Shown here piece by piece: positions 6,340 through 20,003 of a DNA stretch of 64,000 nucleotides. The notes below the pieces were generated by a model. The model did no database searches. It was not told where the DNA came from and was given only the letters and a program-made list of their open reading frames with translations. The DNA is from an uncultured Phycisphaerales bacterium (GTDB lineage: Bacteria; Planctomycetota; Phycisphaerae; Sedimentisphaerales; Anaerobacaceae): positions 1,440,001-1,504,000 of the forward strand of contig OY970359.1 in the NCBI GenBank assembly GCA_963718665.1. Reading direction: 5' to 3'. Both the position numbers and the translations under genes were made by a program. Each line of letters opens with the position of its first letter. Within the stretch, counting starts at the first letter, position 1.

Positions 6340-6546
6340 GAAATAGATTTTTTCTTCCTTGAAATAATTAGCCCCGTCATCATCGCCGGAGGCGTGTGAC
6401 GGGGTTCCCCGCGAACTTTATCCTCCTCTGGCGGATTTTTGCCGGGTCATTAAAACGGCAGGGTTCCCCGCGGTTTGGGTAGAATTGGAGGTAGGAGCTA
6501 ATATTAAAAATAAAGTATAGGTGGCTATCCTCAGCTATTTACCTAT

Positions 6547-6846
6547 TTATTGGTTATGTTTTTTAAGCCAACTTTTTAATTTTCTGACGGCAAAGCAATT
6601 TATTCTATATTCGTCACATATAGATATAACTTTCTTTGTATTTTCAATGTTTGGACTTTTCGGTGAAAAGATGTTGTTATATTCCTCTGGCAACATCAAC
6701 AGCCATTTTGCTTCTTTTTTCGTATCGACACAAAAAACTTTGCCAAACATATTAACAGAAAATGTACTATCGCTATTTTTCTTTATTGAAACACTTGCTT
6801 CTTCTTTAACCGTTGTTGAGTTAATCTTCATAATCTCGACCTTCAC
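6547..6846 (-). CDS. Hypothetical protein (99 aa) in AT-rich islet
   Basis: ORF co-oriented with the other islet genes; no motif recognised. Confidence 0.45.
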   Translation of the reverse strand: MKVEIMKINSTTVKEEASVSIKKNSDSTFSVNMFGKVFCVDTKKEAKWLLMLPEEYNNIFSPKSPNIENTKKVISICDEYRINCFAVRKLKSWLKKHNQ

Positions 6847-6904
6847 TGTTTTTCACAACTACGTAAACATAATACCCGGTCATCCATGACCATAAGGAGG
6901 TTTT

Positions 6905-7006
6905 TTATGACGTTGCTATCATTAAAAATATCCAGAATATCAGCCCGAAAAACAGACTTATTCCAATTGTTGCAATCCACCCTTCTATATATTTTCTATC
7001 AGTCAT
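6905..7006 (-). CDS. Putative 33-aa single-TM small protein
   Basis: MTDRKYIEGWIATIGISLFFGLIFWIFLMIATS*, AAGGTG upstream; manual translation. Confidence 0.45.
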   Translation of the reverse strand: MTDRKYIEGWIATIGISLFFGLIFWIFLMIATS

Positions 7007-7106
7007 TTTCGCACCTTATAAATGTTATGCACCTTATAGTTGCTCGACCGGCTAAACGCAATGCCTCTACGGCATAGGATTTGGACTTGTGTAAGATAGT
7101 TTTCAT
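6999..7106 (-). CDS. Putative 35-aa small protein
   Basis: AAAGGAG RBS then MKTILHKSKSYAVEALRLAGRATIRCITFIRCEND*; stop overlaps the start region of the 33-aa ORF. Confidence 0.35.
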   Translation of the reverse strand: MKTILHKSKSYAVEALRLAGRATIRCITFIRCEND

Positions 7107-7190
7107 TGCTCACTCCTTTAAGGCCGGTTTACCAACATGCTTCTCTGTTAGAGGTGGGGGTGTAACAGAAATGTCATCTAATAATTTTAT

Positions 7191-7655
7191 TCACCCGTAA
7201 CCACAGCATGTCGTATTCTCGTCCGATTTCGTCGATACATTGAATTTCACCCAATTGCCCGTTCGTTTAAAGCCCATCTTTAACCAAAAAGGAAGCGATT
7301 CTTCGGGACAACAAAAACCAGATATAGCAGGATAGCCCTTGTTTTTCGCACATTTAATAATGTGTTCCACGAATAAACGCCCTATACCTTTTCCGCGATA
7401 ATCTGGTCTAACTTCAAGAATTTCAGCAGAGCATCCGTTTCCGAGATAAAAGGCCACAGGTAAATTATCCTTGTTGTCTATTGCTACAGTAAGTTCGCCT
7501 CTTTTCTGCCCCTCCTCTATCAGGTTTGTATTGTTGTAAAAGCCATTTCCTGTCCCAGAACGGTCAAATTCCTCTTTCAACCACGATTTAATTATTTTCA
7601 GGTCCTCCGTTGTTGCTAATCTGAAACGCATGGCAGTTCTCCTTTTGAAATCCAT
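7191..7655 (-). CDS. GNAT-family N-acetyltransferase
   Basis: EVRPDYRGKGIG acetyl-CoA binding motif A and FWLKMGF; probable start MRFRLAT at 7631. Confidence 0.85.
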   Translation of the reverse strand: MDFKRRTAMRFRLATTEDLKIIKSWLKEEFDRSGTGNGFYNNTNLIEEGQKRGELTVAIDNKDNLPVAFYLGNGCSAEILEVRPDYRGKGIGRLFVEHIIKCAKNKGYPAISGFCCPEESLPFWLKMGFKRTGNWVKFNVSTKSDENTTCCGYG

Positions 7656-7746
7656 ATCTCGCTATGAGATTATATCGGCTGAAAAGAAGGGATGGTTTAT
7701 CGGGAAAACGGCTCGATTACCTATTTTCCCCTGCCCCCTTTTTCTT

Positions 7747-8328
7747 CTAATGCATTTCGTAGATGTCATGAGGATAAGCATACTCGTCAGGATATGGAAC
7801 GTTTCCCTCATGAGCGAGCAAAAAACTGCGATATTTAATTACCGCTTTTGCGAATTCCTTGAACGATCCGATTGAACGGTTTTTATAAGCGTGGATTGCA
7901 TTTCTTCTTTCTCTCACCAAGTCAACAAAGATCCCCCACTGCCTTTTTTCTCTTTTTATCCATACGGTATCCTGAAAGAACCGGCATAACGCAATAAACC
8001 GCAACTCATCCGGATCAACTGCTTTTCCTTTTTTCTTTATTGGATTTGAAGAATAATTTTCATGAAAGACGCAAAGAAACCACATCATTGTTCCTTCGAC
8101 AAGAGCACCAAGATTTACCCATGCAAGTATAAGGCTGCCATCGTGTTCATCTTCATCTGGCACAGGTAACCAGCGTAAAAGGTTCTTAGATAAAGATACT
8201 TGCCAATCCAATCTTGATTTGGAGAGCATCTCTGCTGCGCTGCTGGGGGCCCATCCGCCATTTCCCCAGAAATCACGGATATGCTCATTTACTCTAATTA
8301 TATCTTTTATCGCGTCTCTAGGTTTCAT
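7747..8328 (-). CDS. Hypothetical protein (193 aa), helical, with RNxIH motif
   Basis: ORF track; RRNAIH matches an R-x4-H HEPN-like pattern. Confidence 0.7.
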   Translation of the reverse strand: MKPRDAIKDIIRVNEHIRDFWGNGGWAPSSAAEMLSKSRLDWQVSLSKNLLRWLPVPDEDEHDGSLILAWVNLGALVEGTMMWFLCVFHENYSSNPIKKKGKAVDPDELRFIALCRFFQDTVWIKREKRQWGIFVDLVRERRNAIHAYKNRSIGSFKEFAKAVIKYRSFLLAHEGNVPYPDEYAYPHDIYEMH

Positions 8329-8454
8329 AACCGCTCGCCTTTATTAAATTGCCTAATAACGACAATTTACACTAATGGTAGATAACTTACAATACAACAC
8401 TAACCGTATTCCCCGGCATTGATTCCTCCGACGAATTAATCGCCTGCTTGTCCG

Positions 8455-8504
8455 CGTATTTTGCCCGGCTTAATTTATTTCGGCCAACCTCGGCTAAATA
8501 GCCG
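8455..8504 (-). repeat. 50-bp structured repeat, inverted copy of 33561..33610
   Basis: 38/50 identity by manual alignment; core TGGCCGAAAYAAATTAAGCCG. Confidence 0.7.
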
Positions 8505-13863: not shown

Positions 13864-14120
13864 TTATCCACTTTAGTTTTAGCGATTTGTTAAAACAGTT
13901 TGAACTTTCTAACAATCAATATCTTACCCAGATTAAATATCTGGACTCAGCTTGCCCATTATGACCCCCCGCTGTTGAATCGTAACTCCTTATTTACGCT
14001 ATAGTTAGCATTTGCCCCATAACCGCTTACCTCGATATTTTGTTATTTTGGTAACAAATAACGATAGGACTGTTTTTCCTACTCGAATATAGGGTGAAAA
14101 CTATCAACAAGTTATCCACA
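13864..14120. promoter_or_regulatory. DnaA-box-like sites in the thiE-dapA intergenic region
   Basis: TTATCCACT 13864-13872; CTATCAACA 14101-14109 in tandem with perfect TTATCCACA 14112-14120. Confidence 0.45.
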
Positions 14121-14341
14121 TAGCCGGATTGTTAATAGATAGCTTCGATTTTCCTTAAAAGGGGCCGCTATATGGAGAGGCGGTTTTTGGGGAAATGCTA
14201 TTGCATAAGGCGGAGCGAACCTTTTGGTTGGGTCTTTTGTGGCGGGGAATTGAAATACGCTTGATTAAAGCGGAAGAAAAGGGTAAAAGGTATGGCTGAT
14301 TTTTGATTTCGGATTTCAGATTTAGTTTAGGAGAATGATAA

Positions 14342-15214
14342 ATGTTCGCAGGTGCAATGACAGCGCTGATAACGCCTTTCAGGGACGGGCAGGTCGATTT
14401 TGATACGCTCGATGAGCTGATTGAGTTTCAAATCGAAGGCGGAATAGACGGTATAGTGCCGGTTGCAACAACGGGCGAATGCCCGACGCTGAGCCACGAT
14501 GAGCACAAAAAAGTCATCGAACGCGTGGTCAAAACCGTGGCGGGGCAGGTTCCTGTAATCGCGGGGGCCGGCTCAAATTCGACGGCTGAGGCAATCGAAT
14601 TGACGGCATTTGCGAAAAAAATCGGCGCGGACGCAACTTTGCAGGTTGCCCCGTATTACAATAAGCCGACACAGGAAGGTTTTTACCAGCACTTCAAAGC
14701 CATCGCCGAAGAAGTGGATTTGCCGATTGTGCTGTATGATGTTCCCGGCAGATGCGGCGCGGGGATAACCGTCGATACGATTGTGCGTCTTTCCGAGATT
14801 GAGAATATCGTCGGGATAAAAGACGCGACGGGCCAGATGGACCACGTCAGCGAAATCGCGACGCGATGTAATATGACGATTTTGTCGGGCGATGACTCGA
14901 TGACGCTGCCAATAGCCGCGGTTGGAGGCAAAGGCGTAATCAGCGTCGTATCAAATATAGCGCCTGCCGATGTAAAAGCATTGACGGACGCGATATTAGA
15001 AAGCGATTTTACGAGCGCCCTGAAATGGCACAAAAAACTATTTGCGCTGAGCAGGGGAATGCTTTCGCTGGCGACCAATCCGATACCGGTCAAAGCGGCG
15101 ATGGCGATGCTGAACCTGTCGGATGAAGAGATGCGACTGCCTTTGGTGCCGATGGAAGAAAGCAAAAAAGCGCTTCTGCGAAAAACATTGCAGGAATACG
15201 GGCTGCTAAAATAA
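14342..15214 (+). CDS. dapA: 4-hydroxy-tetrahydrodipicolinate synthase
   Basis: TALITPF, TTGE, GAGSNST, PYYNKP, GIKDATG, SGDD, NPIPVK. Confidence 0.97.
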   Translation: MFAGAMTALITPFRDGQVDFDTLDELIEFQIEGGIDGIVPVATTGECPTLSHDEHKKVIERVVKTVAGQVPVIAGAGSNSTAEAIELTAFAKKIGADATLQVAPYYNKPTQEGFYQHFKAIAEEVDLPIVLYDVPGRCGAGITVDTIVRLSEIENIVGIKDATGQMDHVSEIATRCNMTILSGDDSMTLPIAAVGGKGVISVVSNIAPADVKALTDAILESDFTSALKWHKKLFALSRGMLSLATNPIPVKAAMAMLNLSDEEMRLPLVPMEESKKALLRKTLQEYGLLK

Positions 15215-15310
15215 TTGCCGATTGCGCCACGCTGTTATGGCGGGTAAACCCGCCTGCGGCGAAACCGTGTCAAACTCGGTTTTTAAGCGAAAAAGGCAAG
15301 TCGGCCTAAC

Positions 15311-16492
15311 TCAAACTGTCATCTTTGGGATAAAAACGTCGGATACAGAACGTATTGCGAAACTGTCAGTCATACCAGCAATGAAGTCCAAAACGATCAG
15401 TTCATTTGGGTCATCAGGCTTATAAACACCCTTCATGTCCCTAGCAACGAAATCCCGGAAAGTCCTATAAACCTGAGGAATCGAGGTGTCGTCAGCTGGA
15501 GGATAATCATAATTCTGAAATCCGTTTCTCTGCTTGAGTTCAGATAGCAAATCGTAAAAAAGATATTCGATGGTTTTCTTGGCTTGGGTTTTGTACATTT
15601 CTGCTTGGTCGCTGTGATAAATGCGTTCATCATTAAAATTAATCAATTCGTGCAGGAGATCACCTAATCCGTGGGATATTGCTATGTAATCTTTATCATA
15701 GCTTTCCTTGACCATGTCTTCAATGAACCTGCCGATGATTTGCCCATTAGTAGTACCCAATACTATTCTAAACTTTTCGGGAATATCTGGTTCCTTGATA
15801 ACTCCAACCTCAATGGCATCTTCTATATCTTTACCAACATATGCAATCTTATCAATCAAACGAACGATACATCCTTCTGGAGTTGCTGGATTACCCGCAT
15901 CTTCGCACGTCTTGATTATATCTAGGTTTTTCTCCTTGTTAGCTGGTTCAAGCTTACAAGTGGTAAAATCCTCTCCGCAGTGCGAGATGATACCATCTCT
16001 TACTTCCCACATTAGGTTAAGGCCCGGTCTCTCCCTGTCTCGCTTGGCGATACGATCAACTACTCTCAGACCATATATTTCATGAGAAAACTTTGGCATC
16101 AATTCCTTAAGAACAGGATGCTTGTTAAAAATATCTGTGAGAAACTCCTCACCTTGATGGCCAAACGGTGCATGTCCTATATCGTGAGCCAATCCTATTG
16201 CTTCAGCCAAATCTTCATTTAAGCCAAGACAGCGAGCGACAGTTCTGGCTGCGGACGCAACGAATCTTACATGGTCCATTCTTGTGCTGATATGGTCATT
16301 TTGGGGGAAGTAAAAAACTTGTGTTTTATGTCTTAAGCGACGAAACGATTGAGAATAGATAATTCTGTGAACATCTCTTTGGAAATCAGTCCGGAATTTG
16401 TCAGGGCCCTGAGGTGTTTGTCTACCGCGACTTGTTATGGTTGCGTATTTACTTGGGAATAATTCTTTTTCGAGTCTTCTGAAATGTTCCAT
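15311..16492 (-). CDS. HD-domain dNTP triphosphohydrolase (dGTPase family, short form)
   Basis: RTDFQRD..RII.S.SFRRL.HKTQV, TRMDH, HDIGHAPFGHQGE, DKIAY...DIED, DFIAGMTD. Confidence 0.92.
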   Translation of the reverse strand: MEHFRRLEKELFPSKYATITSRGRQTPQGPDKFRTDFQRDVHRIIYSQSFRRLRHKTQVFYFPQNDHISTRMDHVRFVASAARTVARCLGLNEDLAEAIGLAHDIGHAPFGHQGEEFLTDIFNKHPVLKELMPKFSHEIYGLRVVDRIAKRDRERPGLNLMWEVRDGIISHCGEDFTTCKLEPANKEKNLDIIKTCEDAGNPATPEGCIVRLIDKIAYVGKDIEDAIEVGVIKEPDIPEKFRIVLGTTNGQIIGRFIEDMVKESYDKDYIAISHGLGDLLHELINFNDERIYHSDQAEMYKTQAKKTIEYLFYDLLSELKQRNGFQNYDYPPADDTSIPQVYRTFRDFVARDMKGVYKPDDPNELIVLDFIAGMTDSFAIRSVSDVFIPKMTV

Positions 16493-17106
16493 GCCTTGTC
16501 CCTAAAGAGATTAATGAGTAAATCAGCGATATCGCTGGAAGGTTTTTGCGCAGACAAGTAATCACTAATCTCTTTTCCTCTCCTCGTAGCATCCTCAAAA
16601 ATGGGTTCTTTTGCTTGCAAGAAATTGCTTACGGCCGCAGAGAACTTGACCTCAAAAGATCCGGCAATTTTATCATAGCTATCGACGAAAGAAAAGTCGG
16701 CCAGACCAAGAACCAACGGGTTGCAGTTGCCCTCAATTAGCGACCGAGAATCATTCTTAAATATCACAACGACTTTATTATGGGCCCAAGCTATGCCCGC
16801 TTCGACCATTGCTCCTTCATCTGGAACGCGCCCATTCATGTTGAGCAATAATCCCGAACTATTCATTATCTGGAAAACGTCTAACGAGAAGATTGCCATA
16901 TTGAGAATCTTCTGAGCACTTTGTGCCGGGAACCCCTTCTCTATGAAAAATGGGAATAACTCTGCGAACTCTAGACCATTGCGCTGTGGTAGAAAAACTG
17001 GATATCCCGCATTCTCAAGAACCAAAGCGATTTGTGCCATCTCTTCTTTTTCTATGGGATTGAACAACGGACCGGCACAATATATCTTGTACGGACGTTT
17101 TTCCAC
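16435..17106 (-). CDS. Nucleoside 2-deoxyribosyltransferase / nucleotide N-glycosidase family protein
   Basis: IYCAGPLF, GYPVFLPQ, IF..D, PDEG...EAG.A.A..K with the catalytic Glu; AAGGAG RBS before GTG 17106. Confidence 0.88.
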   Translation of the reverse strand: MEKRPYKIYCAGPLFNPIEKEEMAQIALVLENAGYPVFLPQRNGLEFAELFPFFIEKGFPAQSAQKILNMAIFSLDVFQIMNSSGLLLNMNGRVPDEGAMVEAGIAWAHNKVVVIFKNDSRSLIEGNCNPLVLGLADFSFVDSYDKIAGSFEVKFSAAVSNFLQAKEPIFEDATRRGKEISDYLSAQKPSSDIADLLINLFRDKAWNISEDSKKNYSQVNTQP

Positions 17107-17871
17107 ACTTTTCTCCTTGGCGATAACGTTTAACGTCACGAAACCATGTAAACATAGCTTAAAATAGAAATCCGAGCTTTCATTGTCAATACTAATCCCG
17201 GCAAGATATAAGTTTTTTAAAAAACCAATAGCGTATGTAAAATAGAAAAGGAAGACCGACAAGTTTTATTACCCGGCTGCGGGAACAACAAAAGCATTCG
17301 AGGGCAAGCGGGTGGATAAGGAAGGTTAGCGGAAAATTGTTTACTGGAAACCAAATTTTCGACATAAAAAACAGCGGTGATGGGTACATTGAAAACTGAC
17401 GTAAATCCATTATTAGTAAGCAGTTATCAATAAATGCCCCTCATTTACCAAGTCCTTTTTTGTGTGTTTTTTGTGCCTTTTTGTGGCCATTTTTGACGTG
17501 TTTTTTTGTGGTCATTTTTGCCGTAACCTCTTTCCTTATATCGGCTTAAATTCTGGATATGAACGGTCGTATAAAACAAATGTATCAAACAGTTGTATGA
17601 TACAACTGTTATCCATTTTGCGCAGGTGTTTTTGACCATTTCCCAGAATTCTGAAAAAATTTTCTATTCCTTATTACATAAGCACTTATGCACTTTTGCG
17701 CCTGTGCTCTTTTTCGGATTTTTCGTCAAAAGCGCGAAGTTGCGCCATAGGGTAGAGGGACCTTAGTGGTTCTTCATGAGGTGATTAGCCCGCAGGCCCG
17801 CCTGCGGGTCATGAAAACCAAAATTAAAAACTTAGTGTCTTTGTGTCTTAGTGGTAGAAGAGGAGGAGAGT

Positions 17872-18474
17872 ATGGCAACGATTAACATAACGATACCCAA
17901 TTGGCTCGACCGCATTTGTGCCTGGCCGGTAACGGCCTATCGGCGATTCAAATACGGTTATCCATTTCGCAGGATTTATCTCGGCGAAGGCCAATGGACA
18001 ATCCTTGACCAGCAGGATTACTACCGTCTGAATAATTTCAGATGGTTTCTCAAAGGAAATGGAAAAAAATTCTATGCCCTCAGGAGCTTCAAAAATGATT
18101 CTGTCAGGACAAAAATGGTTTCAATGCACAAGGAAATAATGAATCCCCCGCCGGGTTTATTAGTTGACCATAGAAACGGCCTGTCATTGGATAATCGCAG
18201 AGAAAATCTTCGTATTGCAACACACGTTCAGAACTCCTGCAACACCCGAATAGATAAAACCAAAACGACCTCGCGGTTCAGAGGAGTTTATTTGCAGAAA
18301 CGCTCCGGCCGATGGATAGCAAGAATTTATTTTCAGGGCCAAAGAATTTGGCTTGGAATTTTCGATTCTGAAATCGAAGCCGCCCGTGCTTACGACCAAG
18401 CAGCAAGAATGTATCATAAGGAATTTGCACGTCTTAATTTTCCGGAGGAAAATTCACTATCCGCTACCCGCTGA
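17872..18474 (+). CDS. HNH endonuclease - AP2 DNA-binding domain protein (copy 1)
   Basis: [24 protein letters not shown]...RWIARI...[18 protein letters not shown]...ARLNF AP2; AGGAGGAG RBS. Confidence 0.9.
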
Positions 18475-18487
18475 ACGCTGTCCGCTA

Positions 18488-18898
18488 CTATGGGTAAACC
18501 TTGTCGGGGTCGAAGACCTTTTCGGCGACGAATTCGAGCTGTTCGGCTGTTCCTTTTTTCACTGCGCGGTAGAAGCAGGATTGGTAGCCATTGTGACACT
18601 GGCCTGAATCGACGGTAACTTTAAGAACGATGCAATCCTGGTCGCAATCGATGAGGATTTGGCTGACCTTCTGGACGTGGCCCGATTGTTCGCCTTTTTT
18701 CCAGAGCTTTTTTCGAGACCTGCTGTAATAAGTTCCACAGCCGGTTTTGATGGTGTAGTCGAGGGCCTCTCGGTTCATATAGGCGACCATCAGGATTTCG
18801 CCCGTTTTGGCGTCCTGTGCGATGGCGGGAATAAGGCCATTCGCGTCGAATTTCGGCGTCAGTTGTGTGCCCAGTTCTATTGTTTTGTCGGCAGCCAC
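18488..18898 (-). CDS. hisI: Phosphoribosyl-AMP cyclohydrolase
   Basis: GLIPAIAQD, YSRSRKKLWKKGEQSG, DCDQD, CHNGYQSCF. Confidence 0.96.
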   Translation of the reverse strand: MAADKTIELGTQLTPKFDANGLIPAIAQDAKTGEILMVAYMNREALDYTIKTGCGTYYSRSRKKLWKKGEQSGHVQKVSQILIDCDQDCIVLKVTVDSGQCHNGYQSCFYRAVKKGTAEQLEFVAEKVFDPDKVYP

Positions 18899-18999
18899 GT
18901 TTATTTCTCCTTCAATTTGCTCAATATGTAAATCTTGCCGGAAAGGGTTTTAACCGTTATCATCTTCTAAAACAAGTGTTTTACGCTGAAAGCAGATAA

Positions 19000-20003
19000 A
19001 TGGGCGAGCAAAAAAAGACCGCAACACAAAAACTGTTCTTTTTTCTGCGAATCGGGTTTGTAATAGCCGCGATAGTTGCGGTAACCATCTGGGTATCGCA
19101 GAACAGCCGATACGTGATTTTAGGCAGCAGTTTCGCGAAGATGGGGCCGTGGTTTTTCGCCGGGATAGTTGTGGCGTTTGTCGTAAGCCAGGCAATTTTA
19201 GCGTCGCGGTGGTGGCTGCTGCTGCGAACACAGGGGATTCGCATTAGTATCTGGGCGGCAATTCGGCTGCATTTTCTGGGGCTTTTTTATAATAACGCGA
19301 TGCCTGGCTCGGTCGGCGGCGATTTGATTCGGGCGTGGTATGTTACCAAGCACACAGAGAAGAAATTCGAAGCCGTGCTGAGCATATTTGTTGATAGGTT
19401 CGTCGGACTGTTAAGCTCTTTGATAATGGCGGGTTTTTGCTATTTCGTTTTGCTGCGGGGCGTAAACCTTGGGATAAGCCAAAAGGCGGCATCAGGCATT
19501 TTGAAGTGGGCAGTGATTGCTGTCGCGGCGCTGGCAATTTTAGTCGCAGCGATACCGGCGGGAAGAAAACTGGCGGCAAAAGTGTTTCAGCACTTCGTAA
19601 CGTTTGCCAAAAAGCTCTGGACGGCAGCGGTCCTGTATGGCAGCAACCCGTTGACCATACTTGCGACCTTCGGGCTTACATTTTTACTTCAGGGAATAGT
19701 CATAACGGGTTTCTGGTTGATTGGCCGACAGATAGGTATAGAAGCGGGGTTGAAATACTATTTCGTATTTTTCCCGCTGACCTGGGGTCTCGGCGCGATA
19801 CCCGTGAGCGTCGGCGGAGCGGGGGTTGTTGAAGGAGGGCTTGCGGGGCTGTTTGTGCTGGCTGGGGTGGGAGCAGAGCAGGCGCTGGCGATTGCGCTTT
19901 GTCAGCGGGCGGTGTGGATAGTCGCGGCTCTTCCTGCGCCTGGATACACTGGACGGGCAGGCATTTGCCGAAAGAGATGCAAATTGAGCCAGGCGAGAAT
20001 TGA
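19000..20003 (+). CDS. Lysylphosphatidylglycerol synthase TM-region / flippase-like (UPF0104) membrane protein; apparent frameshift near 19936
   Basis: RWWLLL, FYNNAMPGSVGGDLIR, DRFVG, PVSVGGAGVVEG; restoring one G gives the C-terminus LPGAWIHWTGRHLPKEMQIEPGEN*. Confidence 0.85.

Follow-up and report, generated by a model that had tools for sequence, protein, structure and literature searches.

A co-inherited two-gene cassette of a deoxyribosyltransferase-family enzyme and an HD-domain dNTPase in a Phycisphaerales bacterium

Introduction

The described systems closest to the locus studied here contain either an HD-domain dNTPase or an enzyme of the deoxyribosyltransferase (NDT) family. Retron Ec86 has an NDT-fold effector with a defence role. 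To our knowledge, the HD dNTPase TT1383 of Thermus thermophilus has no NDT partner. The Sp-dGTPase family (NF041026) is described in the available text of its report (10.1101/2021.04.26.441389) as a single-gene, accessory HD dNTPase with a patchy distribution, and Tal et al. found defence genes next to 53% of the close Sp-dGTPase homologues and 10% of the distant ones. Clover (10.1101/2025.07.09.663793), as far as the accessible part of its report goes, combines the dNTPase CloA with the Pol-beta nucleotidyltransferase CloB and was discovered in defence islands. In phages with Z genomes, DutZ and DmtZ convert dATP to adenine in two steps. The available text on this pair (PMC12884076) presents a dNTP pyrophosphatase and a monophosphate-specific NDT, encoded beside purZ by two genes or as a fusion and yielding a free base or a base swap.

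Here we analysed 64,000 nucleotides of contig OY970359.1 from an uncultured Phycisphaerales bacterium (the window), in which an NDT-family gene overlaps an HD dNTPase gene, and compared this pair with its homologues in other genomes.

Results

The gene pair and its locus

The features of the locus are collected in Table 1. Both open reading frames were found on the minus strand where the sequence-only reading of the window had placed two genes overlapping by 58 nt. The pair is, as had also been claimed, richer in A and T than its flanks, with GC contents of 0.412 (dNTPase) and 0.430 (NDT), whereas dapA has 0.522, hisI 0.518 and the genome as a whole 0.492. The catalytic motifs, described from the sequence as intact, proved invariant or nearly so in alignments. 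The pair points head-on at dapA, and the HNH-AP2 gene and then hisI lie on its other side. A promoter scan found 5 sites against 5.9 expected in shuffled sequence, and a terminator scan at the locus found nothing above chance level.

Table 1. Features of the dapA-hisI region (positions in the window)
Feature	Position	Strand	Remarks
NDT-family gene	16435-17106	minus	223 aa; GTG start; AAGGAG 6 nt upstream
HD dNTPase gene	15311-16492	minus	393 aa
Overlap of NDT end and dNTPase start	16435-16492	minus	58 nt; translational coupling likely
Sigma-70-like promoter match 5' of NDT gene	17161-17189	minus	TTGACA-17-TATTTT; chance level
Non-coding leader, about 430 nt	17350-17790	none	repeat; cargo-slot marker, outside the enzyme pair
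HNH-AP2 endonuclease gene	17851-18474	plus	1 of 27 paralogues; slot marker
dapA	14342-15214		left flank of the insertion
hisI	18488-18898		right flank of the insertion
Whole variable insertion, dapA-hisI	15215-18493		3 empty among the 12 congener loci that show both flanks

A contig of another run, which may be the source study's own, reaches from dapA into the NDT gene and shows 0 differences, and a mis-assembly of this junction is therefore unlikely. In a relative, one contig connects position 15213 directly with 18494, that is, the insertion is absent. At position 16980 the window has T and the contigs of runs X1 and X2 have C, which replaces Asn with Asp at NDT residue 43. Asp is the family consensus at this residue, and the base in the window may be due to an error in its consensus or to strain variation.

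Elsewhere in the window, a low-GC stretch at about 6500-8500 contains a 193-aa open reading frame (7747-8328, minus strand, GC 0.41). It had no match in Pfam, NCBIfam or PADLOC and is possibly another foreign cargo gene.

A predicted Dgt-family dNTPase distinct from the housekeeping enzyme

The dNTPase matched the Pfam domains HD and HD_assoc above their curated cut-offs and passed TIGR01353 (179.1 bits, cut-off 152.35). It fell short of every equivalog model; the anti-phage model NF041026 gave 114.6 against a cut-off of 400. The PADLOC dGTPase model matched with 185 bits. Both by sequence and by fold, the closest PDB structure was 2DQB, the PRK01286-type enzyme TT1383, which is of similar length and only 26-27% identical. 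The predicted structure had a pLDDT of 91. Residue roles were placed by motif from those of E. coli Dgt, for which the available text (PMC6511015) gives metal ligands, a His-Glu dyad, a gate Tyr, and a Gln and an Asp at the 3'-OH. Among 50 paired dNTPase sequences, H74, H103, D104, D214, H112, Y218, Q58 and D222 were invariant, and E115 was present in at least 90%. Judged from these motifs and models, the protein fits an HD-domain dNTP triphosphohydrolase of the Dgt family. The match to E. coli Dgt spans residues 32-136 only and does not place the guanine-reading residues F391, E400, R433 and R442. With 19% identity to 9P8W, where the Sp-dGTPase family takes at least 45% or a score above the NF041026 cut-off, the protein lies outside that family.

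We then considered whether this gene is simply the vertically inherited dgt of the lineage, a finding that the sequence-only reading had named as one that would speak against its proposal. The genome carries a second dgt at C1:705k, which is 30% identical to the cassette dNTPase. A dgt was present in 41 of 41 genomes searched, and a close match to the cassette dNTPase in 0 of 40 relatives. Because of this second dgt and the lack of a close match in relatives, the cassette dNTPase is not the housekeeping dgt. We constructed a FastTree phylogeny from 92 of 146 dNTPase rows, those more than 76% identical having been removed. In this tree, a single clade with a support of 97 held 52 paired dNTPases, two rows shortened by contig ends and one long-branch row. 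The clade lies apart from the dgt of the host lineage and groups with enzymes of the PRK01286 type. Taken with the distribution of the pair, which is found in none of 23 congeners, the sequences indicate that the cassette dNTPase is an accessory enzyme, distinct from the housekeeping dgt.

An NDT-family enzyme with nucleoside-type residues

The product of the first gene matched PF05014 with 55.4 bits (cut-off 28.8) and no PADLOC model. The closest PDB entry by sequence and by fold was 7O62 (DpNDT), with CtNDT also among the nearest solved relatives. The DpNDT catalytic residues Y16, D74, D94, E100 and N127, as given in the available text of PMC12372993, map to Y9, D76, D96, E102 and N129 in the alignment to 7O62, so that the fold and the Tyr, Asp, Asp, Glu, Asn set are shared. 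In 52 paired NDTs, D76, D96, E102 and N129 were each conserved in 52, and Y9 in 50 with two gaps. The cassette protein differs from DpNDT and CtNDT in being encoded by a dNTPase-coupled gene and in a C-terminal extension of about 60 residues beyond the NDT core, modelled as two helices.

An Asp and an Asn that hold the free 5'-OH are described, in the accessible part of PMC12884076, as separating nucleoside transferases from the monophosphate hydrolases DNPH1 and DmtZ. With D96 and N129 invariant, the cassette NDT does not have the 5'-phosphate pocket devoid of Asp and Asn that marks nucleotide N-hydrolases of the DNPH1/MilB/DmtZ type, and enzymes of this type ranked below transferases in the fold search. 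As it keeps the Asp and Asn for a free 5'-OH, the enzyme is expected to accept the deoxynucleoside that the dNTPase would release, and it should thus take the product class of its partner. These residues favour the coupled two-step chemistry proposed from the sequence, but not the claim that a dNTP is irreversibly destroyed: the nearest characterised NDTs are, in the available text of PMC12372993, reversible base-swapping transferases.

Among the homologues we also noticed proteins of about 420 aa with two tandem NDT-like domains (P0125-P0130, P0135), the first of which often has no catalytic Glu motif.

The two genes are inherited together

We examined whether the pairing is conserved, a lack of which the sequence-only reading had likewise named as speaking against its proposal, and found that it is in both directions. 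Among the best 80 of 200 GTDB loci of the NDT subfamily, a dNTPase gene lay directly downstream in 62. Six loci end at a contig edge and 12 NDTs are solo, giving 62 of 74 informative loci; the solo genes belong to Burkholderiales and Opitutaceae. Starting from the dNTPase, 67 of 79 metagenome loci had the NDT upstream, six ended too early and six were without it. These last six are all distant (35-44% identity), so that every informative close dNTPase was paired (67 of 67). In the phylum sample (401 genomes), an NDT stood beside 6 of 7 close dNTPases other than the query's own.

Most paired loci show either an overlap of the 58-nt type or a gap only a few bases wide, and some pairs are gapped without overlap (L057, L088-L097). 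According to the labels of the metagenome-assembled genome (MAG) records, the pair occurs in eight phyla (Planctomycetota, Spirochaetota, Desulfobacterota, Hydrogenedentota, Bacteroidota, Margulisbacteria, Caldisericota and Zixibacteria), and sister groups cross phylum borders in both the NDT and the dNTPase tree. Tree distances of the two proteins correlated with a rho of 0.91 over 52 pairs. Related sequences are not independent, and this value therefore shows co-travel rather than co-evolution. A complex prediction for NDT and dNTPase scored 0.19, against a mark of 0.32.

No third conserved gene and no conserved sensor gene accompanied the pair in 81 loci. The HNH-AP2 gene, correctly noted from the sequence as a neighbour, was ruled out as a component: it is one of 27 paralogues in the genome, and only 3 of the 62 other paired GTDB loci have such a gene close to the pair. 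An apparent natural fusion of NDT and dNTPase (a 620-aa frame, L128/P0124) was also rejected. The C-terminus of its NDT continues in a different reading frame, which ends where the dNTPase begins, and the long frame is a frameshift or an assembly error. Other fusions were found neither among 149 dNTPase representatives nor among 15 longer homologues, the latter being weak evidence.

The cassette is mobile

Within the order, the NDT subfamily was found in 47 of 401 genomes, spread over 33 of 146 genera, and is patchy within genera. A further dgt was found in 29 of the 47 pair-bearing genomes, and none was seen in the other 18, where MAGs are incomplete. Among the best 80 of 200 GTDB loci, the commonest site, with 13 cases, is between a larA-like gene and gnd. 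Stable vertical inheritance was suspected at this site. Of 30 family loci inspected there, 16 were empty, one carried the pair (the query's own genome) and three another gene; in the remaining ten, gnd was not within 1.5 kb, and two of these contained DUF3800. The empty sites include loci whose larA is 96% and 92% identical, and such empty sites in close relatives weaken the case for vertical inheritance. Taken together, NDT and dNTPase form a real two-enzyme cassette that is mobile and co-inherited.

Concerning mobile replicons, the pair was unmatched in 50,697 phage records. Twelve plasmid records held distant or solo NDTs with less than 45% identity, and none had a dNTPase annotated under the match. 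IMG/VR contained one close NDT, without dNTPase. This gene (L130, 7962-8630) lies on a phage or prophage contig, adjoins tail genes and branches from within the clade of paired NDTs. It may have been captured from a host, or it may serve counter-defence.

The dapA-hisI slot and the HNH-AP2 sites

Seventeen congener dapA loci were collected, and dapA and hisI were both visible in 12. In addition to the empty loci (Table 1), two of these contain an ABC-transporter operon and seven an HNH-AP2 gene with varied cargo. PADLOC matches were found in four of the seven, namely AbiEi with AbiEii once and PDC-M41/M30 (DUF5131 and/or TcmP) three times. The other three have an HNH-like match under the cut-off, no match, and IS1595 with a serine hydrolase-like gene, respectively. 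The slots thus also hold cargo unrelated to defence: the ABC-transporter operon, the serine hydrolase and an EF-hand protein.

The 27 HNH-AP2 genes of the genome are dispersed and 37-63% identical. At 16 of 26 scorable sites their upstream neighbour is AT-rich, compared with 10.5% of 2016 genes genome-wide, and the pair occupies this upstream position at its own HNH-AP2 gene. At the 26 other sites, 18 of 69 neighbours had PADLOC matches at E 1e-8; among the genes of ten control regions the figure was 2 of 70. Strong, system-like matches occur at 9 of the 26 sites (type II, IIG and III restriction-modification, PDC-M41A, Hydrolase-TM, Fic and kinase), the remainder being generic. The leader of about 430 nt has eight further copies in the genome and includes a 23-nt palindrome (17588-17610). 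This family of HNH-AP2 genes and leaders resembles a set of landing slots scattered over the genome, or a homing element that carries cargo; a dispersed family of HNH-AP2 type reportedly has a precedent in phage. In another congener locus (L036, 1476-2749), read by eye, genes for an HTH protein and a reverse-transcriptase-like protein are inserted into a mur cluster.

Neighbourhoods in other genomes

We surveyed 148 nearest neighbours of the pair in 54 contexts and 148 further genes in 29 long contexts, using flanks of up to 10 kb and heuristic gene calls and leaving out 24 distant genes and two long ones. The surrounding genes are mainly housekeeping. Specific defence-type matches, read by hand, were present in 5 of the 29 long loci (17%; L057, L063, L081, L091 and L097). 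At two genes' distance they were present in about 6 of 54 contexts, and two shorter loci (L051 and L095) had them as well. On a measure that differs from that of Tal et al., whose figures come from the available text, this 17% is nearer to the 10% of distant dGTPases than to the 53% of the defensive clade. Small Pol-beta genes adjoin the pair sporadically only (L051 and L057).

Two loci had distinctive genes next to the pair on the same strand. A DarG-like gene lies directly 3' of it in a Bacteroidota MAG (L095, 1948-2655). Downstream of it in a deltaproteobacterial MAG (L093, 13102-16490) are genes for an unknown protein, a radical-SAM protein and a thymidylate-kinase-like protein.

Discussion

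By its predicted chemistry the cassette would work like dGTPase defence and like the DutZ-DmtZ relay. It belongs to neither of these, and Clover and retron Ec86 do not include it either. With the Sp-dGTPase family, as described in the available text, it shares an accessory and patchy HD dNTPase; it differs as a coupled pair and, on a different measure, in its share of loci with defence neighbours, about 17% against 53%. Like Clover in the accessible description, it combines an HD dNTPase carrying the same HD/His-Glu set with a partner that handles nucleotides, but this partner is an NDT-fold glycosyltransferase (PF05014) and not a Pol-beta enzyme such as CloB. In the fold search its dNTPase of 393 aa was only 20-21% identical to CloA, and Clover came to light in defence islands. 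Compared with DutZ-DmtZ, likewise a dNTP hydrolase with an NDT-family enzyme, it would join a triphosphohydrolase to a nucleoside-type NDT, and it resides on bacterial chromosomes without purZ. Neither a reverse transcriptase nor an ncRNA, as in a retron, accompanies it (81 loci; no Rfam match across 14000-19000), and relative to TT1383 the paired dNTPases are a clade of their own. In line with the earlier remark that the pair was not recognised as a named system, full-text literature searches on the pair, its enzymes and Clover gave no paper that names it. A term search of the available main text of Shi et al. 2026 gave 0 matches for deoxyribosyltransferase or NDT.

Taking into account the empty sites and the slot, we give about an even chance to the cassette being an accessory anti-phage module that depletes nucleotides. 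The HD enzyme is predicted to convert a dNTP to deoxynucleoside and triphosphate. The NDT would then break the base-sugar bond of the released deoxynucleoside through a covalent intermediate at Glu102, with a second base or water as acceptor of the sugar; hydrolysis of deoxynucleosides by NDTs is possible when there is no acceptor base. This step would block re-phosphorylation of the nucleoside by deoxynucleoside kinases of host or phage. Alternatively, the NDT might recycle the nucleoside and so let the host tolerate the dNTPase. By analogy, the trigger may be raised dNTP pools. The idea of defence that had been put forward for this locus is thus favoured locally, by the slot and its other occupants, and disfavoured by the neighbourhoods across homologues. 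The accessory nature of the dNTPase, the tight pairing, the turnover at the larA-gnd site and the precedents of Sp-dGTPase, Clover and DutZ-DmtZ also count in its favour. Counting against it are the low NF041026 score, the reversibility of the nearest characterised NDTs, the 18 of 47 pair-bearing assemblies in which a further dgt was not seen, the non-defence cargo of the slots, the lack of a conserved sensor or third gene, and the solo NDTs of Burkholderiales and Opitutaceae. A more specific version seems rather doubtful to us, namely that the NDT destroys or base-swaps the deoxynucleoside to shut off salvage by phage deoxynucleoside kinases or modified-base pathways, and that the cassette is cargo of HNH-AP2-marked mini defence islands among anaerobic sediment bacteria.

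A considerable, although less than even, probability goes to accessory nucleotide housekeeping. The dNTPase would trim an excess, damaged or non-canonical dNTP, the NDT would swap the base and a kinase would re-phosphorylate the product, which would balance or sanitise the pool, with mobility reflecting an optional metabolic trait. The mainly housekeeping neighbours point in this direction, as do the transferase-type NDT residues with DpNDT as the nearest enzyme and TT1383 as the nearest dNTPase structure. By analogy, Trypanosoma brucei, which likewise possesses an NDT, relies on a dNTPase of the SAMHD1 type for pool homeostasis. A kinase of the dNK family, which could complete the salvage loop, is present in this genome and in 28 of 47 pair-bearing genomes. 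However, 19 of the 47 gave no dNK match, a kinase is never part of the cassette (81 loci), and thymidine kinase was not found in this genome, which is 94.6% complete. Gain or loss between near-identical relatives, and residence in a slot that AbiE and PDC-M41 also occupy, would moreover be unusual for a metabolic gene.

We consider it unlikely that the dNTPase is a toxic effector restrained, as Clover might suggest by analogy, by a nucleoside ligand that the NDT makes or removes. The dependence is one-sided as expected of an antidote, with close dNTPases paired in 67 of 67 loci and NDTs solo in 12 of 74 (best 80 of 200); the NDT gene comes first with probably coupled translation, and an NDT without dNTPase is found on a phage contig. 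On the other hand, NDT chemistry follows from the dNTPase product, so that the pairing is explicable without a signal, and an allosteric site could not be placed on the dNTPase from the available alignments. It is very improbable that the genes merged long ago into an overlapping unit and merely travel together by chance or selfishly. An overlap does hinder separation, and the NDT subfamily stands alone in other lineages, but neither active site varies even among sequences only about 37% identical, the pair persists at loci without overlap, and the predicted product of one enzyme belongs to the substrate class of the other.

Depletion of dNTPs is an antiviral strategy that extends from bacterial systems to SAMHD1, and the partners and the control of the enzymes involved are under active study, as Clover illustrates. 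A dNTPase clade that is practically always paired with an NDT offers a small, testable two-gene case in which the product of a dNTPase would serve as substrate for a second enzyme. If the cassette serves defence, it would represent a new class of partner, and defence genes would lie hidden singly among housekeeping genes, out of reach of searches that rely on islands. If its role is metabolic, the cassette would give a physiological role to one branch of the Dgt-like enzymes, many of which are without a known role, and would add a new NDT subfamily of biocatalytic interest.
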